Of a DNA stretch of 64,000 nt, positions 3,798-53,408 are shown in pieces. Each line of letters opens with the position of its first letter. Position 1 is the stretch's first letter. This stretch comes from a virus (Duplodnaviria > Caudoviricetes). The stretch lies in the IMG/VR virus record IMGVR_UViG_3300047160_036266, positions 224,001 to 288,000 of that record, one strand, 5' to 3'. The notes beneath the pieces were generated by a model. It was not told where the DNA came from, did no database searches, and saw only the letters and a program-made list of their open reading frames with translations. The translations under genes and the position numbers were made by a program.

Positions 3798-4208
3798 TTA
3801 TTTAGCATTTCCTAATGGCGATGAGGCGCTTTGGTCCGGCGGACCTCCAGGTGTTACGCCCTGGTCAGGCATATCGCCTTCTCCCTCCGGCAGCGGCAGG
3901 AACTTGATCCTTTGGAAAATCATATTCAAGTCCTTGCGTAATTGGGCCTTGCTACTGTAACCCATACCTTCCAGCGTTTGTAATATGCGGGTAGCATTCT
4001 GAGATAGTTGCCCGCTGGCAGTTGGTTGTGCTTCGTCCGGGTGTCCAAGAGCCTGCTGCTTTTTCATCATGGCCCTCATCTTGGGGTCATCAATGGCAGA
4101 CAGACGGCTCTGGGTTCCTGTCGCGTGAAGGACACCGCCGGGTTGGCCAACCTGGGGTTGTTCTTCATTCAACTTTGTTTCACGCATCCACTGTGCGAAT
4201 TTCCTCAT
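3798..4208 (-). CDS. hypothetical, putative internal head protein
   Basis: ORF begins MRKFAQWMRETKLNEE (capsid-targeting-like). Confidence 0.65.
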   Translation of the reverse strand: MRKFAQWMRETKLNEEQPQVGQPGGVLHATGTQSRLSAIDDPKMRAMMKKQQALGHPDEAQPTASGQLSQNATRILQTLEGMGYSSKAQLRKDLNMIFQRIKFLPLPEGEGDMPDQGVTPGGPPDQSASSPLGNAK

Positions 4209-5087
4209 TTATGCCTCCAAATTTGCTGGCGGTTCCATTGTTTGTTCTGGCGGTCGTGGCTGACCACGCATCTTATCCAGGTAGCCAGCGACCTTATTTA
4301 CGTTGGTCGTCTTGCCGCCACCCGATGCCTGTTCCGCCGGAAATACGGCCTTCAGCACAGCGGCCAGCATGTCCAGGGCGAACTCTTTGACCTGCGGCGT
4401 GTCCTCGCGCCAGTCATCTATATGGTAGTCTTGAGCGTATTTGTTCTTGAGAGTAATAACCGTGTTCCGCAGGTTGCTCAGCATGTGCGGGGGAAGGGGA
4501 ATGCGGTTCTTGCCGACGATCTTTTTGAGTTGATTCCAGTCGCCTGAACCCTCGTCCTCCTGGTTCATTGCTCGGCCCAATAGCCGGGTGTCCGTGGTCC
4601 GGGCGCTGCCACTGATGTCGGAGTCGGGTAGAATGAGCTTGAGAATGGTGCCCATCATTTGGATGGCGAATTTCTTGGCTGTACCGGCAGGTATATCAAC
4701 CTTGAAGTTGGCCCGGCCTTTGTTTTTGGATACCAGATTGGCAAACTGGTCCTTCGTCTTTTCAACTTCCCCGGCCATCGCGTGTTCGTAGTCGGTGGTA
4801 AGTTCGCCTCTGAGTCGATTTGCTTTGGGTTGAAGGGCCGTAACCATCCCCGTCTTCGGCGCGATACGCACCCGATCAAAAAGGTACTTCAGACGCGAGA
4901 AGTCTGAATTGGTTTCTTCGTCTTCCGGGGCTTCCGGTCGGGGCGGTCTTGGCGCACGCTCAGGCTTGGGTGGAGGAGTGGCTGGCTGCGCCTTGGGGGC
5001 GTCCATTGGATCGCCCGGCGGCATCATGGGGCTGGGAGGCGGGGCTTGTTCGTACAGTTTTCTGCGCCATTGGTTGAGCGTTATCAT
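4209..5087 (-). CDS. hypothetical, putative internal head protein with a duplicated internal module
   Basis: MITLNQWRRKLYE start; FAIQMMGTILKLILP / FALDMLAAVLKAVFP repeat. Confidence 0.65.
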   Translation of the reverse strand: MITLNQWRRKLYEQAPPPSPMMPPGDPMDAPKAQPATPPPKPERAPRPPRPEAPEDEETNSDFSRLKYLFDRVRIAPKTGMVTALQPKANRLRGELTTDYEHAMAGEVEKTKDQFANLVSKNKGRANFKVDIPAGTAKKFAIQMMGTILKLILPDSDISGSARTTDTRLLGRAMNQEDEGSGDWNQLKKIVGKNRIPLPPHMLSNLRNTVITLKNKYAQDYHIDDWREDTPQVKEFALDMLAAVLKAVFPAEQASGGGKTTNVNKVAGYLDKMRGQPRPPEQTMEPPANLEA

Positions 5088-5440
5088 AGTTCGTCACGGT
5101 CCTCCGGCGGTTCTGGCGTACTGCCGCCCCCAAAGGGGTCTTCCTCCGAAGTATGGATGAGCTTGCCACGCTTCTTCGGGTCCGGCACAGCGTCCGCCTG
5201 CTGTACTTTTTCAAGAACGTGCCGCACCTTGCTGTGCCATCCCGATATAACGGTCATAGGCACGCCCAATAGTTCAGACATGCCGGCTCCGTTGTTGATA
5301 ACGAGTAGGAAATCGTCCCAGAAATCCTCCCGCACGTTGATGCCGGTACGGATCGCATCCATCGCCTTCGACTCAGAGGCTTTGTTTTCTTCCTCACGGA
5401 AGTTGTGCATATTTTCCAGAAGCCTCTGGAACGAAGTCAT
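5084..5440 (-). CDS. hypothetical protein
   Basis: MTSFQRLLEN start; 4-nt overlap with the next gene. Confidence 0.65.
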   Translation of the reverse strand: MTSFQRLLENMHNFREEENKASESKAMDAIRTGINVREDFWDDFLLVINNGAGMSELLGVPMTVISGWHSKVRHVLEKVQQADAVPDPKKRGKLIHTSEEDPFGGGSTPEPPEDRDEL

Positions 5441-5449
5441 GGCCCCTCC

Positions 5450-5866: not shown

Positions 5867-5889
5867 ATATCTCCTCCATTACACCGTAT

Positions 5890-6141
5890 TTAGGGTACTA
5901 CCTTCCTTTTCTTGTCTGGTTCGGGCATTTCTTCCTCGTCTTCTTCCTCATCGCCTTCTTCCTCATCGCCCTTGACTCCGAGGAACAGTTCGTCAGGATT
6001 GAACGTACTAGGCCCATTGGGTGCTTCCCGTGCGTGGTACTTGCTATTGACGCCCTTGATGCCGAACGCGATGTTGGCGTTATTGGGGTCGTCAATTACC
6101 GGCCCCACCATCTCCTGCAACCACTGGCGGAAGGTTTTCAT
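5890..6141 (-). CDS. small acidic putative internal head protein
   Basis: MKTFRQWLQE start; TATATA 4 nt upstream. Confidence 0.65.
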   Translation of the reverse strand: MKTFRQWLQEMVGPVIDDPNNANIAFGIKGVNSKYHAREAPNGPSTFNPDELFLGVKGDEEEGDEEEDEEEMPEPDKKRKVVP

Positions 6142-6185
6142 GTCATATATAAGCAGCATTGGGGCAATTGTCGCTATATACCTGC

Positions 6186-7559
6186 ATGTTCCGCATGAAC
6201 TTCAGGGACTTTCTGCATGAGGCCGAGATCGTGGGTGGACAGTTGATGGGCAGCGAACAGGCTGCGCTGCGCATCGTCATGCCCTTCAGAAATAGCAACT
6301 GGCACATGCTGACCCTGCTCGATGGCCCACACCATCCGATCCATAGCCCGAAACAAGGCTCTATTATCGACTGCATGACCGTGGAGGAATTCCTGACCAA
6401 CGGCCTAGCCGGCTGGGCGGACGACGACACGCCACGACCTCGCCACCTTGCGGTTCTCCAGGTCATTGATAAGAACGCTGCGATCCGCTGTTTGGACGGC
6501 ACCCACATGACCAATCCCTGGCAATGGTTAAACTTCGACGCCAACTTTATGCGTCAAGCAGCAATGCGTGGCTTAAAAGACATGAAGCCGGTTATGTATC
6601 AGGGCAAGGAAATCAGTCCGGGTGGTGCCCCGAATTGGGAGAAGATAGCGCATCAGATGTTTCACGGCCCTGACCCGTTCGCCAAACCGGGGGCGAAGCA
6701 GCCTGACCTAACGGATCAGGAACGGGATGAGATGTGGCGAGCCAAGCTCGCCAAGACCATCTATGGCGATCTGCCCGACGTGTATGCCAAAGGAACCCGG
6801 CGGGACACGATGTACAACGACAAATATTATCAGCGGTACGGCAAGGTCATGCGGGGTGCCGACATCGACATCGTGGCTGAACATTGCCCGCTGAGCAAGG
6901 GTGGTTTTATCAAGGTCTTCAACCCCAGGGTTGTGCGCGAGGTCGCGCGTTTTCAAATTCGTTCTAACTTTGACGGCTATCGCAGCATGGGTGGTGACTT
7001 TTTGGCGACCAGGCCGGCATCGGAGAAGGAAGCCGAAGGAGTACAAGATAAACTCAACGACATCTTCCAAGATATTGCAGATGCACCGGAGGAAATGAGC
7101 AAGCGCATCGGCTATGTTATGGACAGCGAAGAGATGATGCGTTACATGGGGGGCGAGGAAGTTGAGGGTATCGGCTCGTTTGTGTTCCATGTGCTAGACG
7201 AAATCCACACCATCACCCGGACGGAGGGTATGGAGAAGATGATCCGTGGCTTGTACAAGGCATCCCGGCTCATGGGCATGATGCGCACACGCAGCGGCCA
7301 AGACTTCTCCGATGCCTGGGACGGAGTAGTTCGGTACAATCTTGAGTTCTACAAGAATATCCTGGTCGGCCTCCGGTCGATGAGCAAGCTCATCAAGGAT
7401 CAGTACGCTTACAAGGAAGGTGACAAGTATTACCGTGATGAGGCTGCTAAGCTCGACAAATGGTTTGCTGGGCTGACGCGATCCCTCATGGCCTTTGCGG
7501 ATGTGACGGGCCAATCGACGGAGCTACTGCGGCACCAACTTGGCCTGTTCACTGCTTAA
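6186..7559 (+). CDS. hypothetical, putative internal head protein
   Basis: MFRMNFRDFLHEAE start; TATATA 5 nt upstream. Confidence 0.7.
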   Translation: MFRMNFRDFLHEAEIVGGQLMGSEQAALRIVMPFRNSNWHMLTLLDGPHHPIHSPKQGSIIDCMTVEEFLTNGLAGWADDDTPRPRHLAVLQVIDKNAAIRCLDGTHMTNPWQWLNFDANFMRQAAMRGLKDMKPVMYQGKEISPGGAPNWEKIAHQMFHGPDPFAKPGAKQPDLTDQERDEMWRAKLAKTIYGDLPDVYAKGTRRDTMYNDKYYQRYGKVMRGADIDIVAEHCPLSKGGFIKVFNPRVVREVARFQIRSNFDGYRSMGGDFLATRPASEKEAEGVQDKLNDIFQDIADAPEEMSKRIGYVMDSEEMMRYMGGEEVEGIGSFVFHVLDEIHTITRTEGMEKMIRGLYKASRLMGMMRTRSGQDFSDAWDGVVRYNLEFYKNILVGLRSMSKLIKDQYAYKEGDKYYRDEAAKLDKWFAGLTRSLMAFADVTGQSTELLRHQLGLFTA

Positions 7560-11055: not shown

Positions 11056-12627
11056 ATGCAAACTTTCCAAGATTATGTGACTTCCAATAAAATGCACCGG
11101 CTGGCCGGACAGGCGTTTACCCTGATGGTCCAGCACGGCTACGATCCGATGGCGTTCGTAGAGTGGTTTGAGGACGAGGGCGTTTACCTGTCGGTGCGGG
11201 AAGCAGCAGTCCAAGCGAAAGGTGGGCTTCGTCGCCTGGATGAATTATCATGGGCTAACTTGGTAGGAAAAGGGTGGTTGTGGGGGCGTGGCAAGCAACA
11301 GCCAAAAGGACCAAGTTGGGATGAAATCGGCGGGCCGGAAATGTTCCCCCATGATGAAACCCCCGGTGCCGCAGGCGCAGCCCAAGGTGCCACTCCGGGA
11401 CAGCCACAGCAACCAATGACTGCGCCGCAAATGGGCGACCTTACCAAACAGCGTGCAGTCCAAAATGCTGTAACCAAGCTGCAAGATTTGCAATACAAAG
11501 ATTGGATTTATGACAAGAACCCTCAGCTTACTGCGGCGCTGAATCAAATTGTTCAGTTGTTGCAGGCCCCGCAGGTGCCGGTACAGCAAACGCAACCACC
11601 AGCCGCCCCCACAGAACAACCAGCCAAACCACCACAGGTTCATGCCTCAACGATAGCACCCGTTGGGTCGCCGCCGCCGGGTGGTGCGCATATGGCTCCT
11701 TCGTTTATGAATGCCGACTGGCGTACTCCTGCCGGTTCGCCATTGAGGGAGTACAACAAGATGCTTATTGACCGTACCGTGGATAAACTGGTACGGGCAG
11801 GCATCAACCCGATGTTATTTGTGGACTGGTATAGCACCGAAGGTATTTTCTGTGAAAACGCTCAGGTGTTCGAGGGCCGCTTAGGGGATTGGATGGGGGC
11901 CATTGGCAAGGGTATTGGGAGTTGGTTCGGTGGAAGCGGCTTTAAGCACGGTTATGATGCGCGTTACAACACCATTGCCGTGCAGACGGCAGGAGCGGCC
12001 AGGCAAGCCTTGGCTGATCTCCAAAGCACTCACCCAGACCTGGGTGGCCCAAATATGGCCAGCAACCTAAAGTTCGCAATCGGTGAGTTGGATAAGATCA
12101 TCAAAGAGAAGGGCGGCACTGAATTTAAGGACATCAACAAGCCGGCATCGGGAGTGGATTGGTCCAAACTGAAAGGGCCAACGCCTGGTGAAGAGCAACC
12201 ACCGGGTTCGGCGCAGCCGCCTGCGGCGGCTAAGCCTGCGGAACCCGCCCCCGCACCAGTACCGGCGGGTCACACTCCTGGCACTACAGCACCGTCGCAG
12301 GAAGGCATCCCACCGGAGACTATAACCAAGCTCCGTAATGCAATAGACAATCCAAGCCATGCCGATGCCAGCGACCCCCAGGTGGCGGAAATCCTGAATA
12401 ACCCACAGATCAAGGCCGAGGTCGAGCGGATTCACAAACTGGATGACAATGACCCGCAATTTGCCGGAAAAGACCCGCAAACAGCGAAGCACGAACTAAT
12501 TGCCCAGCAGGTCCGAAATATTTGGGACCAACTGCGCAGCGGTCATATTGATGTTGGTGCCCAGGGTGCTGACTGGTACAGACCCATCGGCAAGCCCTTT
12601 ATGGAATGGCTCAGAGAGAGGCAATAA
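11056..12627 (+). CDS. hypothetical Pro/Gln-rich putative internal head protein
   Basis: MQTFQDYV start; duplicated G(Y/I)xPMxFV(E/D)W..EG module. Confidence 0.7.
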   Translation: MQTFQDYVTSNKMHRLAGQAFTLMVQHGYDPMAFVEWFEDEGVYLSVREAAVQAKGGLRRLDELSWANLVGKGWLWGRGKQQPKGPSWDEIGGPEMFPHDETPGAAGAAQGATPGQPQQPMTAPQMGDLTKQRAVQNAVTKLQDLQYKDWIYDKNPQLTAALNQIVQLLQAPQVPVQQTQPPAAPTEQPAKPPQVHASTIAPVGSPPPGGAHMAPSFMNADWRTPAGSPLREYNKMLIDRTVDKLVRAGINPMLFVDWYSTEGIFCENAQVFEGRLGDWMGAIGKGIGSWFGGSGFKHGYDARYNTIAVQTAGAARQALADLQSTHPDLGGPNMASNLKFAIGELDKIIKEKGGTEFKDINKPASGVDWSKLKGPTPGEEQPPGSAQPPAAAKPAEPAPAPVPAGHTPGTTAPSQEGIPPETITKLRNAIDNPSHADASDPQVAEILNNPQIKAEVERIHKLDDNDPQFAGKDPQTAKHELIAQQVRNIWDQLRSGHIDVGAQGADWYRPIGKPFMEWLRERQ

Positions 12628-17772: not shown

Positions 17773-18474
17773 ATGAAGTCATATAACCAGTGGAGCAACG
17801 ATCAAAATATCCACGGCAACCCTATTCCGTGGCCCACGCGCAATAATACCAACCCGTGGGGCGTTCCACAGAATCCTTACCAACCCAATATTCCGCCAAA
17901 CAATATGGGCATCGGCAAGCTCGGAACGAATATAAACATCGGACGTAAGTTCAGGTGGACTCTGGAGTTAAAATACAAGGACTCCACCCTGCTTGGCCCC
18001 TTCTTTGTTAAAGTGGCCAGCCGTCCGAACCTGAATATTGAAGAGACGACCGTGGACTACCTATCGGACAAATATTGGGTGGCCGGGCAGTCACGCTGGC
18101 AAGATTTGCAGGTGAGCGCTTATATTGACGGGCAGAGTGCCGGCGACCCCAAGACCGCCGAACATCAAATAGTCAATGGTATGGGAGAGTTGGCCTACGC
18201 GCAGGGTTTGACCGGGATGTTACGTCTATGGGACGGCTGCGGTACGGAACTGGAAAATTGGGAATTGAAGAATATGTTTTGCCAGAACATCCAGAGCGAT
18301 CTGGAGTACAGCAGCAGCGATATAACGGTGGAAATGACCTTCAAATACAGCGAGGCGAAATATTCCTCAACCATGCAACCTTGGACCCCTGGTGAGTTGG
18401 CTGCGAAGAAGCGGCAGGCACTCATTGACAAGGCGAGGGCCTATGCCCCGCACTTACGGTTCACTGAATTTTAG
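17773..18474 (+). CDS. T4 gp19-like tail tube protein
   Basis: RKFRWTLE, VKVASRPNLNIEETTV, WQDL, LWDGCG..LENWEL, LEYSSSD..VEMTFKY. Confidence 0.75.
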   Translation: MKSYNQWSNDQNIHGNPIPWPTRNNTNPWGVPQNPYQPNIPPNNMGIGKLGTNINIGRKFRWTLELKYKDSTLLGPFFVKVASRPNLNIEETTVDYLSDKYWVAGQSRWQDLQVSAYIDGQSAGDPKTAEHQIVNGMGELAYAQGLTGMLRLWDGCGTELENWELKNMFCQNIQSDLEYSSSDITVEMTFKYSEAKYSSTMQPWTPGELAAKKRQALIDKARAYAPHLRFTEF

Positions 18475-19081
18475 TGGCTCGGACGAGGTATTGCGGGTCG
18501 GTGTCAGGGGTGCTGTGCCAGCAGATGATACCCAGGTGGTTAGTCTTCTCCCCGCTGGTTTCCTTGTCGTGCCAGCGGTTCTCGAAGTCCTCGTAAGATA
18601 GTTTGCCCCGGTCGCCTTCGATGGACGGGTCTTCAAAGTAGATGTTTTCGCCGTCGTAACCGATGGCGACGACGTAGTGGCCGCTTTCGTCGGTTTTGTA
18701 GTATTTGGGTGCGCCCCAGGCTTGAATATTGCAGATGACCGGCCATTGCTTATCAATATAAGACAGGAGTTCGTTGAGGGACATATCCTCTTTTTTGACG
18801 GCGTTGAGGCCGAAGAATTTGGCCCCTCGCACAATATTGTCCGGCTCAGTGCCTTCCTTTTCGTTGGTTTTGAGGGCCTTGATGAAATCGTCTTCACTGT
18901 CGGGGCCAAGTTTGTAGAACTCGCAAATGGCACGCAGGGCGGCGGCACCGCAGCTAAAGCTTTTTTGCTGTCGCACGCTTGGCAGTGGTATCTTGACATA
19001 CTGGAGTATTTCCCCGTTCGGGACTTGGTGCTTCTTCTCTTCCATGAGAAACCATTCCTTGAAAGTAACCCGTGCATTCAT
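18461..19081 (-). CDS. C39-family cysteine peptidase with capsid-targeting-like N-terminus
   Basis: RQQKSFSCGAAAL, SGHYVVAIGYD, YFEDPS; begins MNARVTFKEWFLMEE. Confidence 0.85.
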   Translation of the reverse strand: MNARVTFKEWFLMEEKKHQVPNGEILQYVKIPLPSVRQQKSFSCGAAALRAICEFYKLGPDSEDDFIKALKTNEKEGTEPDNIVRGAKFFGLNAVKKEDMSLNELLSYIDKQWPVICNIQAWGAPKYYKTDESGHYVVAIGYDGENIYFEDPSIEGDRGKLSYEDFENRWHDKETSGEKTNHLGIICWHSTPDTDPQYLVRATKIQ

Positions 19082-19090: not shown

Positions 19091-19474
19091 TTACCACCCG
19101 TGTTTTTTGGCGATGCGGTCGGCACACTTCTTAATTCCTCCTGGGTTGGGCGCATGACGGGAATATGCCTTGGCGGCACGGACCTGCTTCTTGTTGGACA
19201 CAGGGAAGCTCTTGCCAGGTGCGCCGCCGGACGGGCCGCAGAACGGTCCTTCGCCGGGGCCGCTGGTTTCCCGCTCCTTGCCGACGTTGGAGCCGCCGGG
19301 CTTGTCATGCACGTCCTTGTGTTCCCGCTCGACCAGCCATTCCTTGAACTTCTTCCAGCCCGCACGCTTCATCTTGGCCTTGTGGGCGGCAGACTCACCC
19401 TCTTCCTCATCATGGTCGAGGTCGATGCCGGTACGTTCTTCCTCACGTTCCAGTTCTCGGTGTGATTTCTTCAT
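19091..19474 (-). CDS. small charged hypothetical protein
   Basis: internal KFKEWLVERE; TATATA 4 nt upstream. Confidence 0.65.
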   Translation of the reverse strand: MKKSHRELEREEERTGIDLDHDEEEGESAAHKAKMKRAGWKKFKEWLVEREHKDVHDKPGGSNVGKERETSGPGEGPFCGPSGGAPGKSFPVSNKKQVRAAKAYSRHAPNPGGIKKCADRIAKKHGW

Positions 19475-29928: not shown

Positions 29929-30333
29929 ATGAAAACATTTGGCCAGTACGTTCGGCAGCGCTTGCGGGAGGATGGAAGCCCTCCGCTTGGGCTGGCACCG
30001 ACCGACGTGGGTATTAAAGCCAAGGATGACGGCCCCCTCGACCGGGACCAGGAAGTGCAGATGGGCAAGCTAATGCAACTGGTCAAGACCGCCACGCAAA
30101 AGCACCCCGAACAGGCTTTGGGCCTGCTGGAAAAGCTGGCGGACCATGACGGGGAAATCCGCAGTGGCCTCGAATCCCTCAAGGGGGAAATGCACCGCTC
30201 CGGCAACCATAAGTTCAAGGACAAGGGCCTGGGCCACCTGGGCAGCGTCGGAGACTACGACCACAAGGATCAAGTCATGCCACCCTATGCCGATCAGACC
30301 TCAGCCGGGGAGACGGACGGCGGTGGTGGTTAA
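29929..30333 (+). CDS. putative internal head protein
   Basis: MKTFGQYVRQRLRE start. Confidence 0.65.
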   Translation: MKTFGQYVRQRLREDGSPPLGLAPTDVGIKAKDDGPLDRDQEVQMGKLMQLVKTATQKHPEQALGLLEKLADHDGEIRSGLESLKGEMHRSGNHKFKDKGLGHLGSVGDYDHKDQVMPPYADQTSAGETDGGGG

Positions 30334-37579: not shown

Positions 37580-38149
37580 GTGAAGAAAGTTTGCTTCCTG
37601 CTCACCCACCAATGCTCCGGTTCTGAGCCGCTGCTGGAAACCCTTGGGGCGAACCCACGCATCCAGGTTTACCGCACGGGCCGGACCTACCTTCATCCCT
37701 TGTCTCTCGAAGACCTGACGGGGATGCCCCACAAAACCCGCAACGCCGCCGCCGTCTGGTTGGACGAGATTCGCTACAACTATCAGTTCGGGAACAAATC
37801 GCTGTACCCTCTCGCCAGGTTCCTTTATATGGTTCGCCCGGCGGCACCCACGCTGACTTGTCTCGTGACGGGCGGCTACGAGCCTGACTTTGCAGCCCGC
37901 TATTATTGTTATCGGCTCAGGCGGCTGGCGGAAATGGCGAAACGTACCCCCGGCGCAATCCTTATCACGCCCGATAAGCCTGCCCTAGACTTGGTTGCAG
38001 AGTACCTGTCCTTGAAGCAACCCTTGCTATCGTTCCAGGCCCAGCCGGCGGTCGTGGCGTCCCTCGATTGGGAGTTGGTCCGGCACTGCGAGGAGCGTTA
38101 CGAATGGCATTTGTTTTTCATGAAGCAGTTCCTACGCTTCGAGAGGTAG
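37580..38149 (+). CDS. sulfotransferase-fold protein (tentative)
   Basis: FLLTHQCSGSEPL..L..NPRI resembles a PAPS-binding loop; FLYMVRP. Confidence 0.4.
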   Translation: MKKVCFLLTHQCSGSEPLLETLGANPRIQVYRTGRTYLHPLSLEDLTGMPHKTRNAAAVWLDEIRYNYQFGNKSLYPLARFLYMVRPAAPTLTCLVTGGYEPDFAARYYCYRLRRLAEMAKRTPGAILITPDKPALDLVAEYLSLKQPLLSFQAQPAVVASLDWELVRHCEERYEWHLFFMKQFLRFER

Positions 38150-38686
38150 GGTCGTCTTTTTCCCACTGCGGGATGAAAATACAATCCCGGCAACCTCGAA
38201 TTTCTTTCCCTCAAAATCCCTATTCCCCGCTAGATCGTCGGCTTTGCCACGCTTGACGTAGGCGATGGTGACGTGTGGCTTATAAACCGGATAGGAGTTG
38301 GTTACTTCAAGGTGGTCATTGAGCCGCTGGTGGAGGCGATGTAGTTCGGAGCTTCGCACGTCGATTTTGACCACATCGAATTTGGGGTTTGTCTTAAATA
38401 AGGTCACTCGCCCCAGCTTGCAGGTGAAGGGCTTCTGGGACCGCAGAAGCTCCTGCACCGGCTTGGGGTCATCCGTGTGGATGCCGTAGAGGACGGTGGT
38501 GTGAATTTCGTTCTCCCGACCAAAGCTGGGATCATCCGGGTCGGTGTACACAACCCCGTGGGTGATGCGCTGATGACCCCATTCAATAATCTGGTCCGAT
38601 AGGTCGTCCGGCAAATATATTTGCGTGGAGGAATAACTGTATACAACGTCGTGCATCTCGTTAGCCAAGAATTGCCGAAACGTCAT
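38132..38686 (-). CDS. 2H phosphoesterase (T4 gp57B/Acb1-like)
   Basis: two HxT motifs (IHTTVLY, PHVTIAY); begins MTFRQFLANE. Confidence 0.8.
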   Translation of the reverse strand: MTFRQFLANEMHDVVYSYSSTQIYLPDDLSDQIIEWGHQRITHGVVYTDPDDPSFGRENEIHTTVLYGIHTDDPKPVQELLRSQKPFTCKLGRVTLFKTNPKFDVVKIDVRSSELHRLHQRLNDHLEVTNSYPVYKPHVTIAYVKRGKADDLAGNRDFEGKKFEVAGIVFSSRSGKKTTLPLEA

Positions 38687-38999
38687 CGTCTCCTTCGGTT
38701 TGTTGTTTCTTGCGGCGTTCAGCAATCTCGTCTATCTTTCTTTTTTCTTCGGCAATCATGCTGTCGATGTAGTGTAAGGTTTCCTTCACGCCCATGCCAG
38801 GTACGGCCCCAACGCCCCAATGCTGTTGGTACTGTTCCTGCTCAGCCTGTTGCCTCTTTTCCCGCTTCTTCTCCACCTGCTCCACCTTGGTCAAGGCGGC
38901 GTTTAGGTGATACCGGGCTTCCGACAGGGTAAAATCCTGTGGGCACTCCCGGATAGCTTGTTGTAGCAAAGTCCTTAGTCGTTGGGTATTATTCTTCAT
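38661..38999 (-). CDS. hypothetical coiled-coil protein
   Basis: ORF coupled to its neighbours. Confidence 0.6.
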   Translation of the reverse strand: MKNNTQRLRTLLQQAIRECPQDFTLSEARYHLNAALTKVEQVEKKREKRQQAEQEQYQQHWGVGAVPGMGVKETLHYIDSMIAEEKRKIDEIAERRKKQQTEGDDDVSAILG

Positions 39000-39949
39000 C
39001 CCGCACCCTCTCCAATTAACTCAATGTATTTAATGGGTATCTCGTTGTTTCCTGCCGGCTCATATTCGCCCGGTTGCACCTGCACCAGATGCCTGGTGTC
39101 CACACGCACCTTCCAGGTATCATGAATGGATGGGAGCGGGGCACGTTCCGTCATCAGGCGGGGATAAATCTCGGCATTCCCCAGGACCGATAGTTGGCGG
39201 CGAGCGTCAGCGTATACGTCTCGCTCCTCGCAGGTAGCGTTGAAATATAGCGTCATCACCTTCCTGGCCGACACGGATCGGGGTTGTTGAATCTCCTTAA
39301 TCAACCCGAAAAAGTCCCTTTGCAGGCCATCGTCAACATAAAACGCCTCGCTGTTTTCATCGAGGGTCCATACTTCCAAACCGCCGGGGGCCAGCCCGCA
39401 GCCAAATTTGCCGCTGGCCGGCGGTCGGCTTACTTCCACGACCGCTTTCTCCACCGGATAGACCCATTCCCTTCCCTGGGGTTCTTTTGGCACGATCCCA
39501 ATAAGGGACTTAAAGCCCGGCAAGAATAGGCTGGCGGTTTCCAGAAGCTTTCCCAGCTTGTGCATATTCTTGCTGGTCTTGTGCATCAACAACCGGAGGG
39601 TTTCCTGCTCGTTGAGTTGGGGCTTTGCGCCGTAGAGACAGTATGCCTTGAACTGGAAGAGGGCTTCTGGCATCGGCCCTTGGTTCCATTCTTGGTAGGC
39701 GCTATATGCTGCCTGGATTTTGCGGGGGTTCATGCTGGACAGTGCCACCATGAACGGATTGGTCTGCGGATAGTGCTGATTCAACAAACACTGCTCAATG
39801 GCCACCTTCTCGGCCTCACTGCTTTCGATATAGTCCTCACGCCAGACCACATTTTTCAGGCGCTCGGTCAATGCTGCCTCATAGGCTTCAAGGCTAATGG
39901 CAATTTTGTTGGAACACTTGAAGTCAACATACTGCTGGAATTGGCTCAT
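38996..39949 (-). CDS. hypothetical protein
   Basis: start reassigned to MSQFQQYVDFK immediately after the terminase. Confidence 0.6.
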   Translation of the reverse strand: MSQFQQYVDFKCSNKIAISLEAYEAALTERLKNVVWREDYIESSEAEKVAIEQCLLNQHYPQTNPFMVALSSMNPRKIQAAYSAYQEWNQGPMPEALFQFKAYCLYGAKPQLNEQETLRLLMHKTSKNMHKLGKLLETASLFLPGFKSLIGIVPKEPQGREWVYPVEKAVVEVSRPPASGKFGCGLAPGGLEVWTLDENSEAFYVDDGLQRDFFGLIKEIQQPRSVSARKVMTLYFNATCEERDVYADARRQLSVLGNAEIYPRLMTERAPLPSIHDTWKVRVDTRHLVQVQPGEYEPAGNNEIPIKYIELIGEGAG

Positions 39950-39950: not shown

Positions 39951-41759
39951 TTACCACCCAAATTCTTTGAGTAATTTGTCGTACTTCCTTGAGTAGTTGA
40001 ACATGACGCCCGGCAAGATGTCATCCTTGTCCGGGGCCAGGAAATCGGTCGGTTCCTCGATAAAGTCCTGCGGTGCCCCTTCCTGCAACTCGCGCTTGAT
40101 CTCCTCGTATATTTCCGTCTTGAAGGTCGCCGTGATCTCCTTGGGAACCTCGGCACCCATCGGGATGTCACGCAGCAGGCCGTCGCGTACATAAAGCGCC
40201 ATGCACATGGCCATGATGGCGTCGTCGTGATGACCCTTCAGGGCCTCGGCCCGCTTGGTCTGGGGGTTGAAAATGAATGTTTGCAGTTCCCGGACGAAAC
40301 GGTTACTATTGATGCGCACCGTACTGTTGATGAGCCTGTGCTGCAATCGCTCCAGAAAGATTGGGCGGTTGGTCCGGTTGACCGTGATGCCCGGTTTCTC
40401 CTGTTTGCCCTTGGCCTCATAATGGATATTTTCGTAGAATAGGTCGTGCTGTAACTGACTGATGACAGCACCGCCAGGGGCCATATTCTCCACGATGATG
40501 GTCGCCGTGTTGTAGTACAACCCGACTTCGTTGAGGATTTGGGTGAAGATGTGCGGCGGCACGCTGTTGCTATAAAACTCGGCCACCTGTTCCAAGGTCG
40601 CCGTGTCAAGAACCTGGAAGCAAGAATTATCGCCCTTCTCGCCCATGCCTTCAGCCACGTCCACGCCGATCAGGTATTCGTGGCCGTCAATGGGTTCCTT
40701 CCATACCCACATGGCCCCTTTGTCAAATTCCAGGTCGTCGTTGACCAGTTCAAGATATTTGTCTATATTGGCCCACTTGGGGAACAGCTTGCGGATCGGA
40801 TAGTTGTCCCTGGTAGCTTTATCGAGAGCGTCGATGATCTTGGTGGGGAAGTAGTTGTCACCGGAGCCAAGGAACTCGCGCATGACCTCCTGCAACCAAC
40901 CGGCCTCGCCAAGCTGGGCCTTGTTCTTCTTGACCCACTCCGGGTCGTCGTATTGCGGGTTGTCCCAATAGTCCAACTCGATGACATGCCAGATTTTGTT
41001 CCGGTTCTCTTTGGTGTCGGTGAAAGTCTGGTGATACCAGTTGCCGTAACCGTTGACGGTGGAAACCACGGCGCACTGACCGCCGGTGCTAAGTACCGGC
41101 CACATAGCCTTCCAGTGGGTTTCCATGTCCGGGATGAATGCCGCCTCGTCAATGATGAGGAAGGTAACGGATTTACCACGAGCGGCTTCTGGGGAATAGA
41201 ACTTCATCGAGCCGCCGGTATCGGTGAACATCTTCAGATGGTCGTTCCACTTGCCATCGGTCTTGGGCTTCATCCAGATGGGTAAGTGTTCGATGGCCCG
41301 GTCCACGATCATGCCGATGTCTGTGGCTTCACGGTCGGTCTTGGACAGCAACATGACCTGGGTATCTAGCTTGAACATGCACCGCCACATGCCCCATAAC
41401 AGGGTGAGAGTGGTCAAACCACCCTGGCGGAACTTGCTGATGATATTGAAGTCGTGGCTTTCGTAGTCCTTGATAACCGTCCGCTGGTACTTGTACAAAA
41501 TGAAGGGGATCAAGCCCTGGACGGGGTGGAGAATCTTGAGGTACTTGTTGCAGAAATACGGGAAGCTCATCGAACACTTGATGATTTCCTTCTGCTGGCG
41601 GTGGGCGTCATACGCCTCGATCTGCTCCTCGGTTTCGTCGGGGTCGATGTCCAGTTCGTAGCGGTCGAAGTCATAATACTTCGAGTTATATTCTCCCTCG
41701 TAGTATTCCCTGGGGGTCTTATATTTCTTCCGCCACTTTGAAAAATTCTTGAGGTCCAT
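39951..41759 (-). CDS. terminase large subunit (gp17-like)
   Basis: KFRQGGLTT, FLIIDEAAF, VSTVNG, IGVDVAEG..GDNS, HHDDAIMA. Confidence 0.95.
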   Translation of the reverse strand: MDLKNFSKWRKKYKTPREYYEGEYNSKYYDFDRYELDIDPDETEEQIEAYDAHRQQKEIIKCSMSFPYFCNKYLKILHPVQGLIPFILYKYQRTVIKDYESHDFNIISKFRQGGLTTLTLLWGMWRCMFKLDTQVMLLSKTDREATDIGMIVDRAIEHLPIWMKPKTDGKWNDHLKMFTDTGGSMKFYSPEAARGKSVTFLIIDEAAFIPDMETHWKAMWPVLSTGGQCAVVSTVNGYGNWYHQTFTDTKENRNKIWHVIELDYWDNPQYDDPEWVKKNKAQLGEAGWLQEVMREFLGSGDNYFPTKIIDALDKATRDNYPIRKLFPKWANIDKYLELVNDDLEFDKGAMWVWKEPIDGHEYLIGVDVAEGMGEKGDNSCFQVLDTATLEQVAEFYSNSVPPHIFTQILNEVGLYYNTATIIVENMAPGGAVISQLQHDLFYENIHYEAKGKQEKPGITVNRTNRPIFLERLQHRLINSTVRINSNRFVRELQTFIFNPQTKRAEALKGHHDDAIMAMCMALYVRDGLLRDIPMGAEVPKEITATFKTEIYEEIKRELQEGAPQDFIEEPTDFLAPDKDDILPGVMFNYSRKYDKLLKEFGW

Positions 41760-46646: not shown

Positions 46647-47288
46647 ATGTATCTGGCAACTGAATACCTCATCAGATCGGGCATCGCCAAGCGGATGCTT
46701 CGGATTCCCTGCTCCTTGTTCCTTACCGATCTCGTCGGGGGCGAGAAAAAGGTCATCACCATAAGCCACGGATACCGGCTCAGCGACCGGCTGGTGGTCA
46801 AACACTGGCTGGTCGGGCTGTGCCGGGACGAGCAGGTGATACCTTCCCTTCAAGAATACCTCGTCCGTCACGAAAGCATTTTTGACGACCCGCATGTGAT
46901 ATTGGAGAGGCACCGACTCCTCAAGTACAAGGAGGAGCCGGTGCCTTCCCATCTCAACAGTTTCAACCATCCGATGCTGGCTGAAACTTACAACCACTTT
47001 GCCGACCAGTTTTTTGACTCCGCTGGCCACCGCTTACGGCGCGAGAACTGGCTCTGGGATGAGTTTGTCCGCATCTACTTTCCCCAACTCATAAAACTGT
47101 GCTACAGCATCTTCCAGTACCGGCACAAAGACGACGCCGCTGCCGATCAACGCAACATCGTCCGCCAGCACTACCAGGAGCGGTGGCTCTATTGGTTAAA
47201 GTGGCGGAAATATCTGCTGGATTTTGAGGGACCGCCTGCTGAACTGGTGTTTTGCAGGGAATACAAGAGCTATCATGAGGCCGACTGA
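46647..47288 (+). CDS. hypothetical protein
   Basis: ORF with SD. Confidence 0.55.
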   Translation: MYLATEYLIRSGIAKRMLRIPCSLFLTDLVGGEKKVITISHGYRLSDRLVVKHWLVGLCRDEQVIPSLQEYLVRHESIFDDPHVILERHRLLKYKEEPVPSHLNSFNHPMLAETYNHFADQFFDSAGHRLRRENWLWDEFVRIYFPQLIKLCYSIFQYRHKDDAAADQRNIVRQHYQERWLYWLKWRKYLLDFEGPPAELVFCREYKSYHEAD

Positions 47289-47479
47289 CGCTGGCGCATT
47301 TTCTTTCTCATGAAAGGATGGGCGGGCGTCGGAGGAAGCTCCTTGGGGTCGTTGGTATAGACCGGCATGGCCCCGCCGCCCTTTTTCACGTCCCGTTCGA
47401 TCCGAGAACTGGTAGGCTCCAGGCTCGGTTCGATGCCGTAATTGCCAGCTATTTCCAGCCATTGAAGAAAGGTCTTCAT
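47273..47479 (-). CDS. small putative internal head protein
   Basis: MKTFLQWLE start. Confidence 0.6.
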   Translation of the reverse strand: MKTFLQWLEIAGNYGIEPSLEPTSSRIERDVKKGGGAMPVYTNDPKELPPTPAHPFMRKKMRQRQSAS

Positions 47480-47498
47480 TGCGCTAATATATAGAAGC

Positions 47499-49258: not shown

Positions 49259-49322
49259 AGGCACGAGCGAGAAGATATTAGCCTGCGAGTGTCCGCAGGA
49301 GCTAGTTCGCTCGCTCGTGCTT
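49259..49322. promoter_or_regulatory. long imperfect inverted repeat between the divergent exonuclease and primase genes
   Basis: GCACGAGCGAG..CCTGCG-loop-CGCAGG..CTCGCTCGTGC flanked by opposing TATAAT boxes. Confidence 0.55.
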
Positions 49323-49365
49323 AGATATTATAAACCTCTTGGGAACCCAGAAAAAGGCGTGATTC

Positions 49366-50406
49366 ATGGCCGTCGATTTTCAGCGCTTTGTGGATTGGGC
49401 CGAAAGCCGCTTTGATGATGTGATCGTCAAGGGCGGGGAAGTGCGGCTTAACTCCATCTTCAGCGACGAGCCAGACTCCCACTTCCACCTATGGTGCAGC
49501 CCCTCCGGGGGCAAGAAGCACCGTGATAACGGCGTGTTCCACTGCTTCAAGACCGACCGCAAGGGCAGCCTTATCACCCTCGTCATGGAAGTGGACAAGT
49601 GCGACTATGACGAGGCCCTGGCGACCCTGCGGGGCGAAACGTCCTTGCGGGTGTTGGAAGAAAAACTGGAGGAGTATTTAACCCAGCAGGAGGCTGCACC
49701 CAAGGCTGAAACCAAACTGTTCCTGCCGCCGCACGCAGCGATTATCAGCGCGAACCCGAATGGCTGGTGGGAACGCAAGGCCAGGGAATATTTGAAAAAG
49801 CGAGCCATCCCGGCGGACGAGTATTATATTTGCACGGACGGGCAATATAAAGGCCGCATCATCATTCCCTACTACGACCGCACCGGGAAACTCATTTACT
49901 GGAATGCCCGTGCCACCCACCCCAAGGCCAGACTTCGCTACGTCGGGCCTCCCAAGGACGTGGGCGTGGGCAAGGAGGACGTGGTTTACATGGACCATTG
50001 GCCCCCGGAAGGGGCCACCGTCCATCTTTGTGAGGGTGAGTTCAATGCCAAGAGCCTAAGCCTGGCAGGATTGCATGGGGCTGCCTGCGGCGGCAAAAGC
50101 ATGAGCGCTAAGCAGGCGGTAATCCTCAAGGATTATGCAATCGTGATCTGCCTCGACCGGGATAAGCCAGGCTGGAAAGGTGCTGCCAGCATGAGTGAAA
50201 AGCTCAGTGCCATCTCGGTGCGGCTGGGATTGCAAGATCGCCTGCTGCTGGTCCGGCCTCCGATGGGTTATAAGGACTGGAATGAGATGCTGGTCAAGTT
50301 TGGACCGGAAATATTGGCGGCGTATGTCGCCCGCAGCGCTAAACCGCTGGAACAACATACGCCGTTAGGGAAGTCGAATCTGTTCTTCAACCTGCGCGAC
50401 GTGTGA
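49366..50406 (+). CDS. DNA primase (TOPRIM)
   Basis: FHCFKT, GRIIIPYYD.TGKLIYWNAR, CEGEFNA, CLDRD.PG, KDWNEML. Confidence 0.85.
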   Translation: MAVDFQRFVDWAESRFDDVIVKGGEVRLNSIFSDEPDSHFHLWCSPSGGKKHRDNGVFHCFKTDRKGSLITLVMEVDKCDYDEALATLRGETSLRVLEEKLEEYLTQQEAAPKAETKLFLPPHAAIISANPNGWWERKAREYLKKRAIPADEYYICTDGQYKGRIIIPYYDRTGKLIYWNARATHPKARLRYVGPPKDVGVGKEDVVYMDHWPPEGATVHLCEGEFNAKSLSLAGLHGAACGGKSMSAKQAVILKDYAIVICLDRDKPGWKGAASMSEKLSAISVRLGLQDRLLLVRPPMGYKDWNEMLVKFGPEILAAYVARSAKPLEQHTPLGKSNLFFNLRDV

Positions 50407-50877
50407 CTACACCATTCGGTAGCCCAGAGAGGCCAGAAAAGTTGTGGCCTGCTGGGCATTTAGCTGGCTGCCAACAGGATATTGTCTGGTAAAGTTTTGC
50501 AATGCCTGTTGTTGCTGCTGTGGCGTTACCTGTTGGTGCTGGCCAGGAGTAGTGCCGGCAGCCGGTGCAGCGGCAGGAGCAGGAGCAGGTGCGGCAGCCA
50601 CAGGTGCCCCGTTCGTTTCACCGAATAGGTTACGATCCACAAGCCATTCCTTGAACTTCTTCGGCTTGTCCTCGTGCTTATATTTTTCCTTCTTCTCCGG
50701 CTTCTTCTTGCTCTTGGAAGTGTCGCCAGGCTCCGGCTTATAATGAGGCTTGGCCTTCTTTTTGTTTTTCATGTACCAGGCCAGGGCGAACGGGTTGTCG
50801 ATGTCCTTGTGGCGCTTCATAGCCTTGGTGGTTCCAGACCAACCAGGCGGCGATACTTCGTCAAGTCTCTTGTCCAT
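50407..50877 (-). CDS. basic hypothetical protein
   Basis: PPGWSGTTKAMKRHKDIDNPFALAWYMKNK; internal KFKEWLV. Confidence 0.65.
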   Translation of the reverse strand: MDKRLDEVSPPGWSGTTKAMKRHKDIDNPFALAWYMKNKKKAKPHYKPEPGDTSKSKKKPEKKEKYKHEDKPKKFKEWLVDRNLFGETNGAPVAAAPAPAPAAAPAAGTTPGQHQQVTPQQQQQALQNFTRQYPVGSQLNAQQATTFLASLGYRMV

Positions 50878-50893
50878 TTTACTCCCCTAATGT

Positions 50894-51259
50894 ATGAACC
50901 TTACATACTTTGTCGGCAAAGCTTGTTCCGTATTTACGCACCCGGTCAACAGGAATTTTAACGAGAAACAGCTTCAGGACTATTTTGTTGGTCTGGTGGA
51001 ATCCGTTGATGCCAGGGGCGTTTGGACAACCCACCCCATCACGGGCTGCAAGAACTACTATCCGATGGAGAATATTATCGCCATCTGCGAGGAACAAGTT
51101 GTCCATGACCAGAAAATACTTGAGAAGTACAAGGAAGCCAAAAAGGAAGTCGAGGCACCGATAGCTACGCCAGGGGATACAACTTTCATCGACCATGAGA
51201 TGATGGTCCGGCTATCACAGCAGGCCAAGCAACTCAGTCGGAAGCCAGGCGCTTCTTGA
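50894..51259 (+). CDS. Sm/LSm-like fold protein (tentative)
   Basis: FVGKACSV..FVGLVESVDARGV..YYPMENIIAI. Confidence 0.45.
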   Translation: MNLTYFVGKACSVFTHPVNRNFNEKQLQDYFVGLVESVDARGVWTTHPITGCKNYYPMENIIAICEEQVVHDQKILEKYKEAKKEVEAPIATPGDTTFIDHEMMVRLSQQAKQLSRKPGAS

Positions 51260-53408
51260 AATATTCGTGACGCTGGGATAAGGGCAGATGGGCGTACTCA
51301 GATCGCAATATTGGTTTGCCGCCTTCGCGCAGGAGCTTCCGATAGCGAGCTATCAACTCGATTGATTCGGGGAACTTATCTAATTCTGGCATGAGGCCAC
51401 CAAGGTCGGCGTCGGGGTCCGAGTCCTTGTCACGGGTGCGGCCCGCAAAGAGCAACCTCTTTACTTTCTCGATCTCGCCCGCCTTCAAATCTCGCTTTAA
51501 CTCTTCCATTTCCGCTGCGTTAATGCGTCCTTCCCCAGCAAGGGTGTCGATTTGGCTTACTAACTCCTTTGGGTCATCTTCCGGCTTTTTCTTCTTGCCT
51601 CTCGACGGCCTCCGCTGGAAATGTCCTTCGATCTTCCTTTGCACCGATTCCTCGGTGTCACCCTCGTGTTCGATGCGGCTCAAGTGCGGGGCATGTTCGG
51701 ACATATATTCATCGTAGATGTCCGGGTAGTAGCGCTTGATGATCTCTATGCGAGGATCGCCCTTGCGTAGTACCTTGGGCAGCACAACCCGTAATTTGCC
51801 AGCGTTATGGCCCCGGCCCTCCTTACCTGCGTTCCCCTTGCGATTGAGATGGTCTTTTTCATCCTGCGGTAGTGACATCCAGGGGTGCCAAACGGCATCC
51901 AGTATTTCCCTTTGCTCATCGGTTAGGGTGTGGAGATGCCGCTTGCGCAAGTCCGTCAATGTTTTTATAACATGCGGTCGGTTAGCATCACTGAGAAGTT
52001 CCTTATAACGCTCGCTTCGGCCAGGAGCCGCCGTATGCTCTGGTCCTTCCGGGACCGGACCTGGCACACCTTCGTCCTCATGCTCCTCCTCGGCCTCCGG
52101 TTCCTCTGGCTCAATCGGCGGTGCGGCAGTTGGCTTTTCTGGCGTACCCTCCAGAGAATAGGGTTCCCCCTCCTGCGTTGGGGCGTGAGGTATCCGATTG
52201 TAGAGGGCGGCGGGACTTAACATGCTGCCGGCAGGATCGCTGGCCTTTACCCCGAACTTAACCTTGCCGCCCTTGGTTTCTCCGATGGCATCCCAATGGG
52301 CAAAGGCAGCCTTGACCCAGGCCCATACCCGGCGCTTGTGATCGAGGTCCGATTCGTCTTTCCCTTGTGAGGGTATGTCACCTGGCCACGGTGGGACCGG
52401 CCCTTGGGCCTTGTCCTTCTTCTTTTTTCCCGGTTTCTTGACTGGTGGTTCCTCTTCTTCCGCTTCCGCTTCCGCTTCCGCTTCCGGTGAAAAGGACGCA
52501 GGTGGGGCGTGTAGTCCGGCGGCGGGCACTGGCGGCAGGTTTTGCGGCATACTGGCCCGTCCTGAAGGTTTTAGGGTTCCTTCTTCATCCTCTGCCCCGC
52601 CATGACGGCCCATTTCCTCATGGGAGGCTGGCGATAAACCATCGCTGCGCCGTGCAGGCACGTCCGGTTCTTCGTCTGGCTCTTCTACTGGCGGTTCGCC
52701 TTCGGGCGCTGGAGCCGATGGCCTTTCTGGGGGCGGTTCTTCTTCTGGCGGTCCTTCGTCTGGCGGTGGCTCCTCCTCTGGTAGCTGTTCGGCATCGGGC
52801 CGCTGCTGCGTTGCTGGCGTGGGGTCCATGTAGTTGGCACCAATATTGACTGCATTCTGCATGGACCGCTGGAATTCCCTCTTTATGTCCTGAATATAGC
52901 GCATGATAGCTCTGGTGGCGTCATCACGCCAGTTGTCCAAGGCCCGATCAATTTGCAGTACGCCCTGCCCGGCCACCGCTGCTTCGAGGAGGGTGCTGAG
53001 TTCAGTAACAGTGCGGTATTCGGCAATTGAAAGCACCCGTTCCCCGGTCCACTCCGGCACGGTTTCTCCCCAGGCACCCAGCCGGTTGCGATAGTAATAA
53101 GGGTTGCTCGTTGCATCAGCCCCGTGCCACAGGTTTTTCCACCAGTTGGCAATGCGCGTGCCGATGCCACGTTGCGCCGTAACCCCGCCTGGTCCTTTTA
53201 GCTGGTTACTCAGGTCTTTGACTAATTTTTGTATCTCTCTAGGTAGTTCTTGCTCAATGCGGGCAAATTCGGCGTCCATATTTTGAACGAGATTATGGAG
53301 CGTTTGCTGAATAAGCGGACCAGCACCCCTGGCCGGTGGTGGTTCAGCCTGGGGCGCTGCTTGGCGGGCCTCGTTGGTCTTCTTCAGATAGGTGGCAAAA
53401 TCACGCAT
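51234..53408 (-). CDS. large disordered putative internal head protein
   Basis: MRDFATYLKKTNE start; long Pro/Glu-rich region. Confidence 0.7.
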   Translation of the reverse strand: MRDFATYLKKTNEARQAAPQAEPPPARGAGPLIQQTLHNLVQNMDAEFARIEQELPREIQKLVKDLSNQLKGPGGVTAQRGIGTRIANWWKNLWHGADATSNPYYYRNRLGAWGETVPEWTGERVLSIAEYRTVTELSTLLEAAVAGQGVLQIDRALDNWRDDATRAIMRYIQDIKREFQRSMQNAVNIGANYMDPTPATQQRPDAEQLPEEEPPPDEGPPEEEPPPERPSAPAPEGEPPVEEPDEEPDVPARRSDGLSPASHEEMGRHGGAEDEEGTLKPSGRASMPQNLPPVPAAGLHAPPASFSPEAEAEAEAEEEEPPVKKPGKKKKDKAQGPVPPWPGDIPSQGKDESDLDHKRRVWAWVKAAFAHWDAIGETKGGKVKFGVKASDPAGSMLSPAALYNRIPHAPTQEGEPYSLEGTPEKPTAAPPIEPEEPEAEEEHEDEGVPGPVPEGPEHTAAPGRSERYKELLSDANRPHVIKTLTDLRKRHLHTLTDEQREILDAVWHPWMSLPQDEKDHLNRKGNAGKEGRGHNAGKLRVVLPKVLRKGDPRIEIIKRYYPDIYDEYMSEHAPHLSRIEHEGDTEESVQRKIEGHFQRRPSRGKKKKPEDDPKELVSQIDTLAGEGRINAAEMEELKRDLKAGEIEKVKRLLFAGRTRDKDSDPDADLGGLMPELDKFPESIELIARYRKLLREGGKPILRSEYAHLPLSQRHEYFKKRLASD

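Follow-up and report, generated by a model that had tools for sequence, protein, structure and literature searches.

A short N-terminal leader opens 43 otherwise unrelated proteins, and two more in which its Phe stands at residue 7, in a phage record of which a stretch of 64,000 nucleotides (bases 224001-288000, here called the window) was analysed together with the rest of the record. We judge it probable, at about two chances in three, that this leader is a capsid targeting sequence of the bacteriophage T4 type, which in a clade of soil megaphages has been extended to 35-50 cargo genes per genome and is coupled to leaderless late-promoter cassettes. The tagged genes, counted after curation with the start codon allowed to lie at the motif, form about 10% of the roughly 400 genes of the record, and 14 of them fall inside the window. 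An earlier note on the window had proposed such a tag on about 15-20 unrelated proteins. The carriers are indeed unrelated, as similarity beyond the leader was found in only one of 903 pairs of tagged proteins, a pair encoded by adjacent genes; the number given was too low.

The IMG/VR record (G000, contig label G000:C1) is 343,421 bp long, with a CheckV completeness estimate of 69% and a guanine-cytosine (GC) content of about 55%. IMG/VR contains 351 relatives of its major capsid protein (83-92% identical), and the longest of their contigs measures 532,729 bp. In GenBank the closest record is LR756511, an uncultured phage of 595 kb, and the nearest cultured phages reach only 29-40% identity. 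Public runs containing the sequence are soil DNA metagenomes from about 20 studies, with contig assemblies only. Because the head genes are of T4 type, and given the sizes of the relatives, the uncultured GenBank neighbour and the soil runs, the source is an uncultured soil megaphage of the T4 superfamily with a genome of roughly 0.5 Mb. A complete relative of 532,729 bp (G001), with a capsid protein 90% identical and a protease of the same family, was used for comparison. It was given its own gene model because the model from the 55%-GC genome called too few genes in relatives whose GC content differs.

The leader and its putative late-promoter box

Genes were called on the whole 343-kb record without reference to the motif, using a dicodon model and Shine-Dalgarno (SD) scoring, which gave 392 genes. 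Aligned on its Phe, the leader has the consensus M-(K)-T-F-[RK]-[EQ]-[WFY]-[LV]-x(0-3)-E. When residue pairs at residues 2-16 were ranked against protein interiors, F-x-x-W headed the list of 1,579 pairs (24 observed where 3.9 were expected, p=6e-12), and W-x-E, F-x-x-x-L, W-L and T-F were likewise ranked high. Of the 392 N-termini, 29 contain F..[WFY][LIMVFA] with its Phe at residue 2-6, as against predictions of 2.8 from interior rates and 2.6 from internal-Met windows. Shuffling of residues 2-16 gave a mean of 3.3 and a maximum of 12 in 1000 shuffles, which bears out the earlier expectation of an excess over shuffled N-termini and brings the excess to about ten-fold over all three controls. 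Positions left free by the pattern are also biased: T or S precedes the Phe in 22 of 43 leaders (p=5e-11), R or K follows it in 21 (p=8e-8) and E or Q occupies position +2 in 31 (p=5e-20), with further biases for E/D at +5 (p=8e-7) and E at +8 (p=2e-6). Leaders were scored in bits with a position weight matrix (PWM), each being left out of the matrix in turn, and 37 of 43 lie above the 99.9th percentile of the internal-Met windows used as controls.

A Glu is found 5-10 residues past the Phe in 39 of 43 tagged proteins compared with 128 of 358 controls (p=2e-12), and the first Glu beyond the leader core stands at residue 8-16 in 40 of 43. A [LIVMF]-x-E site comes next in the leader in 20 of 43 cases, compared with 72 of 358 controls (20%, p=4e-4), and the most frequent endings are W-L-E and W-L-x-L-x-E. 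The hydrophobic residues at i, i+3 and i+4 share one face of a helix, and the leader is an amphipathic N-terminal segment of 8-16 residues. Synonymous codons vary within it (Phe is encoded by TTC in 25 leaders and TTT in 18, Leu by five codons and Thr by four), and the motif begins at a variable distance of 1-5 codons past the ATG. The codon variation means that selection acts on the peptide, and the leader is thus selected at the protein level. The bodies behind it range from 57 to 887 amino acids (aa; median 151) and 17 of 43 are basic, with an isoelectric point above 8.5. The 30 residues past the leader are slightly enriched in Pro, Gly, Ala, Ser, Gln and Thr (p=0.001). Tagged genes show modest clustering, with 10 adjacent pairs against 4.9 expected (p=0.015).

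Many tagged genes lack an SD sequence. In its place stands a box, TA[N]A[TA]A, which ends 4-5 nucleotides (nt) before the ATG and in most cases has a C in front, giving CTA(A/T)ATA. A box ending 2-9 nt upstream was found at 23 of 43 tagged and 21 of 358 untagged genes (odds ratio 18, p=4e-14). The strict form is rare, with 399 copies on both strands of the whole genome, and is sharply positioned; the preceding C is present in 20 of 36 boxes. The tag does not simply follow from this arrangement, because 20 tagged genes start otherwise, mostly with an SD sequence, and 21 leaderless genes are untagged. In sequence the box matches the T4-type late promoter element, which reads TATAAATA at -13 to -6 in T4 and CTAAATA from -12 in Aeh1 (PMC1524935). 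If the geometry of T4 late promoters applies, the transcript would begin with the A of the ATG or a neighbouring base, which implies that these tagged genes would be expressed from leaderless late mRNAs. A late sigma factor of the gp55 family was detected in both G000 and G001 with the PHROG profile phrog_234, and T4 gp55 used as a single query matched neither genome. The gene in the present record is:

G000:C1:169138-169641 (+), gp55-family late sigma factor gene, phrog_234 E=2e-8

Two divergent gene pairs have back-to-back putative late-promoter boxes in their spacers, 6142-6185 and 47480-47498. The second spacer is only 19 nt long, and a single palindromic TATATA in it serves both the tagged gene at 47479 (-) and an untagged gene at 47499 (+).

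The leader recurs in relatives. In G001, a PWM trained on the first genome only gave 17 N-termini of at least 8 bits where 1.1 were expected and 12 of at least 10 bits where 0.3 were expected, and a scan that ignored called starts gave about 37 distinct candidates, 25 of them behind a promoter-like box. LR756511 (GC 41%) has five tagged open reading frames (ORFs) in the 41 kb around its capsid gene, one of 1,076 aa, and four have the box. In the more distant record LR756508 (484 kb, capsid protein 45% identical) no clear leaders of this type were seen in the 41 kb examined. Only 19 of the 43 carriers have a homologue in G001, at 24-76% identity, and about 16 of these homologues, with bodies 24-60% identical, still open with the leader; the other 24 carriers have none there. 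On these comparisons the cargo set turns over fast and the leader is under purifying selection.

A second shared leader, MKN[HY]W[LI]..[KR], opens seven proteins whose BLAST similarity is limited to the first 10-29 residues. By analogy with T4, which has leaders of the internal protein (IP) type and of the Alt type, it may represent a second address class. Its genes are:

20697-20978 (-) and 21132-21329 (-), MKN[HY]W[LI]..[KR] leader, in the window
G000:C1:21317-21568 (-), 45608-45934 (-), 63512-63844 (-), 162703-163263 (-) and 164011-164151 (-), the same leader, contig coordinates

Tagged genes and their products

The tagged genes and candidate carriers of the window, with PWM scores (leave-one-out for most) where available, are:

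3798..4208 (-), tagged, 136 aa, MRKFAQWMRE; 13.0 bits; SD-led (GGAGG); no Pfam family
5084..5440 (-), weak candidate, 118 aa, MTSFQRLLE; 8.7 bits; second aromatic absent
5890..6141 (-), tagged, 83 aa, MKTFRQWLQE; 10.2 bits; TATATA box ends 4 nt before ATG; no SD
6186..7559 (+), tagged, 454-457 aa, (MFR)MNFRDFLHEAE; 16.7 bits; TATATA box ends 5 nt before ATG at 6186
11056..12627 (+), tagged, 523 aa, MQTFQDYV; 12.9 bits
14140..15558 (+), tagged, 472 aa, MPDALSFRLWLQQQE, F at residue 7; 14.1 bits
18461..19081 (-), tagged C39-like papain-fold peptidase, 206 aa, MNARVTFKEWFLMEE; 15.3 bits
19491..19754 (-), tagged, 87 aa, MGFLSFQEWLVRE; 14.9 bits; TACATA box 5 nt upstream
29929..30333 (+), tagged, 134 aa, MKTFGQYVRQRLRE, within the head module; 12.1 bits
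35022..36368 (+), tagged, 448 aa, MHGFRNWMEAE; only 3.0 bits; TATATA box 5 nt upstream
36361..37551 (-), tagged, 396 aa, GTG start, (M)NFKEWLRLDE; 19.7 bits; CTAAATA box 4 nt upstream; phrog_11575, function unknown
38132..38686 (-), tagged 2H phosphoesterase (Acb1-like, predicted from Pfam), 184 aa, MTFRQFLANE; SD-led
38996..39949 (-), tagged, 317 aa, MSQFQQYVDFK; 8.8 bits; directly downstream of the terminase gene
47273..47479 (-), tagged, 68 aa, MKTFLQWLE; 13.5 bits; palindromic TATATA box shared with the divergent gene at 47499
49366..50406 (+), primase-like candidate carrier, 346 aa, MAVDFQRFVDWAE; 13.6 bits; phrog_47 DNA primase E=1e-42
51234..53408 (-), tagged, 724 aa, MRDFATYLKKTNE, then a Pro/Ala-rich linker; 9.6 bits; box and SD upstream

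All 15 peptides quoted in the earlier note are present, 13 of them at the start given there. Two are offset: the ORF at 19081 starts with ATG at that position (MNARVTFKEWF) and the quoted peptide begins at the V codon at 19069, and the ORF at 14140 (MPDALSFRLWL) contains its quoted peptide from 14155. Two others are weak, namely the peptide at 5440, which has no second aromatic residue, and MITLNQWRRKLYE at 5087, which has no real match to the motif.

The genes at 6186 (+) and 6141 (-) are divergent and separated by 44 nt, and the 6186..7559 product had no match in Pfam, PHROG or Atlas. The 51234..53408 protein had no family in Pfam or PHROG, and its Atlas model is poor. Several diverged orthologues retain the leader. 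The G001 orthologue of 11056..12627 keeps MRSFAQHI at 25% identity and that of 38996..39949 keeps MSSFAKYLE at 24% identity, and the leader of the primase-like protein is partly kept as MAVDFDRFRRWVE. The gene at 29929 holds a conserved place in relatives, where orthologues 29-46% identical keep M[KR]TF..YV..RE.

The earlier note had also foreseen a nuclease, peptidase and base-modifying toolkit, which fits the tagged set in part. A peptidase is present, as the 18461..19081 product matches Peptidase_C39_2 (Pfam, E=2e-12) with the domain starting at residue 30; no clear nuclease was found among the tagged proteins with Pfam, PHROGs and Atlas; and base modification depends on a weak fold match to a tRNA-guanine transglycosylase (TGT). 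That match concerns the 35022..36368 (+) protein, which belongs to phrog_15826, has no Pfam match and was modelled by AlphaFold2 as a TIM barrel (mean predicted local distance difference test score 84.7). The best Foldseek hits are TGTs (E=1e-4), at template modelling scores of only 0.31-0.38 and among generic TIM barrels. The Atlas language-model lead is DUF6610/DpdA (0.88-0.90), and a DNGMF block is invariant across 16 orthologues. The modelled fold thus gives a TGT/DpdA-like enzyme as a lead and no assignment. Most of its 15 database orthologues (44-90% identical) keep M-x-[GT]-F-x-x-[WL]-[FL]..E. Some of them (P0006, P0007) are publicly called five codons upstream, as M[LI]YKVM[RK]TF, with the conserved TATAAA box read as codons, and one Atlas record of the protein from the window begins at Met8, inside the leader; automatic annotation therefore hides the leader in some records.

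The 38132..38686 (-) product matches Pfam 2_5_RNA_ligase2 (E=1e-11, 45.2 bits) and Acb1 (37.2 bits, cut-off 27), and its two H-x-T motifs, HTTV and HVTI, align to PDB 7t26. By these family criteria it is a predicted 2H phosphoesterase of the Acb1-like kind. T4 gene 57B (Acb1; L130:23952-24410 (-), beside ipI) starts MMEFKDF, which is loosely like an IP leader. An N-terminal F-x-x-F may be a family trait of Acb1-type phosphoesterases; alternatively, the head may be a destination of T4 Acb1 too. Outside the window the tag is carried by a 549-aa radical S-adenosylmethionine (SAM) protein, an 887-aa UvrD-type superfamily 1 (SF1) helicase, a 577-aa tRNA-nucleotidyltransferase-like protein and a DUF3293 protein. 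Most tagged proteins, large ones included, had no family in Pfam, PHROGs or Atlas.

The head module

The head genes of the window are of T4 type and all lie on one strand:

24780..26216 (-), major capsid protein, gp23 family, Pfam Gp23 E=2e-87
26242..27141 (-), probable scaffolding protein, judged by location, a Glu-rich helical composition and a density of 6.4 [LIVM]-x-E sites per 100 aa
27141..27824 (-), prohead protease, T4 gp21 type, Pfam Peptidase_S77 E=1e-25, PDB 5jbl (T4 gp21) E=1e-16
32363..34945 (-), portal protein, 860 aa, phrog_213 portal E=3e-75 over residues 334-731
39951..41759 (-), terminase large subunit, phrog_2 E=3e-43

A gp21-like protease had been claimed for this phage, and the Peptidase_S77 match agrees; the protein carries ELDHP and GISSRG motifs with the His and Ser in place. 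The capsid protein is 29% identical to T4 gp23. In a weak alignment (E=2e-4) it has L-L-E within one residue of the T4 maturation cut site L-T-E65, a position that fits the same protease specificity as in T4, as far as such an alignment can indicate. Four tagged genes fill the interval between the terminase and portal genes and one more lies between the portal and protease genes; T4 core genes 67 and 68 occupy the corresponding head region. The tail and baseplate block of roughly 30 kb contains none of the genes in the curated tagged list.

The portal protein has an N-terminal extension of about 330 aa outside the profile match, reminiscent of the very long propeptides that portal proteins of giant phages carry (PMC5694885). 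A 645-aa gene at 27833-29770 (-), directly upstream of the protease gene, was considered as the portal and rejected, as neither Pfam nor PHROG assigns it to a family and it does not resemble T4 gp20; the portal gene is 32363-34945. The N-terminus of its product, MKRKLMKFEDFQRFE, is loosely leader-like (2.9 bits), and the protein may be a component of the prohead core. The element ACTTAATTAG(A/G)(A/G)(A/G)G occurs only six times in the genome and in four cases directly precedes a gene, with starts at 29770 (-) (the 645-aa gene), 34945 (-) (portal), 41759 (-) (terminase), all three in the head module, and G000:C1:64560 (-). It holds stop codons in two frames and an SD-like run, and may be a start-region signal for head genes.

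Probable capsid targeting and competing explanations

In T4 the sequence MKTYQEFIAE, of about ten residues, directs internal proteins or fused foreign proteins into the prohead core, gp21 cuts it off once and the mature internal proteins are injected (PMC8442874, PMC3012670, PMC5694885). The leader is the only part shared by Ip1-3, each of them an inhibitor of host GmrSD nucleases, and the T-even phages together have 'at least 10' known Ips (PMC12373910). As read from NC_000866, both ipII and ipIII begin MKTYQEFIAEA, as the earlier note had stated; ipI begins MKTFKEFTST, with MKTFKEF as its leader, and alt begins MELITELFDE. In essence the consensus found here is that of the ipI and ipII leaders. 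With Y in place of the anchor F, the T4 ipII leader still falls in the top 0.7% of PWM controls. Common to the two systems are a leader of about ten residues, placed at the very N-terminus of unrelated proteins that are non-essential and evolve fast, its pattern M-K-T-[FY]-x-[EQ]-[FW]-[IL]-x-E with the terminal Glu, and genes for a gp21-type protease and gp23. They differ in that the present phage, whose capsid protein is 29% identical to that of T4, has some 45 carriers in 343 kb compared with three in T4, so that the proposal of a tag on many more proteins than in T4, enzymes included, holds. The carriers here reach 887 aa, Trp is preferred at the second aromatic position, half of the carriers lie in predicted leaderless late-promoter cassettes and a few copies of the motif are internal.

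Other T4 proteins, gp24, gp67, gp68 and Alt, have N-terminal propeptides that gp21 removes. T4 packages and injects Alt, a large enzyme, which resembles some of the present carriers in being an enzyme with an N-terminal leader; the leader of Alt, MELITELFDE, is different in sequence. Encapsulin cargo-loading peptides are usually C-terminal and uncleaved, and the Dar system of phage P1 packs a very large helicase-methyltransferase. These are alike in principle, in that varied cargo reaches the inside of an HK97-fold shell by means of a short peptide or an adaptor, but they have no sequence or evolutionary link to the leader described here. The giant phages phiKZ, 201phi2-1 and SPN3US hold many head-internal proteins, enzymes included, which a gp21-related protease trims after Glu (PMC5694885, PMC10052503). 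The phiKZ-type giants differ in having propeptides mostly longer than 100 residues, with no single short shared leader, and are not of the gp23/T4 core type. The boxes are those of T4 and Aeh1 late promoters, the C in front being shared with Aeh1, and the phage encodes a gp55-like sigma factor, but here the boxes end 4-5 nt before the ATG and the predicted transcripts have neither leader nor SD sequence.

By analogy with T4, we infer docking, packaging into the capsid, cleavage, injection and the timing of transcription as follows. The leader would dock its protein onto the scaffolding core of the assembling prohead, and a gp21-type prohead protease would then cut the leader off after the Glu. 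The mature cargo would stay in the head and enter the host with the DNA. About half of the cargo genes would be organised as a cassette of a gp55-type box, CTA(A/T)ATA, a gap of 4-5 nt, the ATG and the leader, a layout that would yield leaderless mRNAs made during head assembly. A broader formulation is finely balanced in our judgement. It describes a clade-wide address system on about 10% of genes (35-50 per genome), carried by exchangeable 'late promoter - ATG - leader' cassettes and loading the head with enzymes of up to about 890 aa; its cargo would comprise the Acb1-like phosphodiesterase, the peptidase, a helicase, a primase, a tRNA nucleotidyltransferase, a radical-SAM enzyme and the TGT-like enzyme.

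Several observations weigh against capsid targeting. The clade is known from soil DNA assemblies alone. The putative scaffold (26242..27141) has no detectable homology to T4 gp22, and leader likeness above chance was found neither in the scaffold, protease, capsid and portal proteins nor at the scaffold termini. The canonical [LIV]-x-E closes only about half of the leaders. The leader also occurs on presumed cytoplasmic enzymes (the primase-like protein, the SF1 helicase and the tRNA nucleotidyltransferase). Strong internal copies of the motif number 12 against 3.2 expected, and six of at least 14 bits against 0.7 expected. Among them KKFKEWLV[ED]R is near-identical inside two otherwise unrelated proteins, 40-75 residues from their N-termini:

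19091..19474 (-), internal tag copy KKFKEWLVERE, residues 41-51 of a 127-aa protein; 20.2 bits; leaderless TATATA start
50407..50877 (-), internal tag copy KKFKEWLVDRN, residues 73-83 of a 156-aa protein; 17.4 bits

In the second protein the copy sits between a Lys-rich N-terminal half and an Ala/Pro linker.

The same enzymes, together with the radical-SAM protein, the internal copies in unrelated proteins and the missing similarity between leader and head proteins would be expected if the leader were a docking peptide for some other late hub, such as a replication or transcription factory, a chaperone or a membrane site, rather than for the prohead core. We nevertheless consider this unlikely, since the pattern is nearly identical to that of the T4 ipI and ipII leaders, whose function is known, the Glu lies at residue 8-16 as it would in a gp21 substrate, tagged genes are embedded in the head module and the carriers are mostly small, fast-evolving accessory proteins like the T4 internal proteins.

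The strong tie between the tag and the box-plus-ATG arrangement could also mean that the shared N-terminus is a by-product of expression, arising from nucleotide or codon constraints on leaderless late mRNAs. Such an origin is very improbable in view of the free synonymous variation, the variable distance of 1-5 codons from the ATG, the 20 tagged genes that are SD-led or otherwise started and the 21 leaderless genes without a tag. It also conflicts with the existence of internal copies and with conserved residues that are Phe, Trp and Leu rather than those of A-rich codons. Less probable still is an N-terminal degradation or turnover signal, read for instance by a host AAA+ protease and timing the late accessory proteins. 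The polar-Thr-hydrophobic-basic order of the leader has what we take to be a loose resemblance to N-terminal ClpX recognition motifs, but a turnover signal leaves the T4 likeness, the terminal Glu and the position in the head module unexplained, and offers no reason to make enzymes only for degradation. Chance or a paralogue family was tested and is rejected, given the ten-fold excess over three controls, the biased free positions, the single similar pair of proteins and the replication in two further genomes.

Capsid targeting of the T4 type is thus the reading that we prefer. Its principle and the peptide are already those of T4; set against the literature searched, the novelty lies in the scale, in the presence of enzymes among the cargo, in the cassette and in the group of phages concerned. 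If the leader works as in T4, a sequence search would list about 45 candidate virion-delivered proteins per genome, and because every characterised T4 carrier (Ip1-3) inhibits a host defence nuclease (PMC12373910), that list would be a rich source of candidate anti-defence effectors, with the leader as a simple sequence handle for finding new ones. Natural variants of the leader may have practical use, as the T4 leader already loads foreign proteins into capsids. Leaderless late mRNAs would be unusual for T4-type phages, and the promoter-ATG-leader cassette suggests a route by which new cargo is recruited. If the reading is true, the phage would bring pre-packed enzymes into the cell, the Acb1-like enzyme for example being present from the first second of infection, and its cargo would exceed every peptide-addressed injected proteome so far proposed for a phage. 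The T4 address peptide would then be ancient, kept across capsid proteins that are 29% identical, and its use would scale with the size of the capsid.

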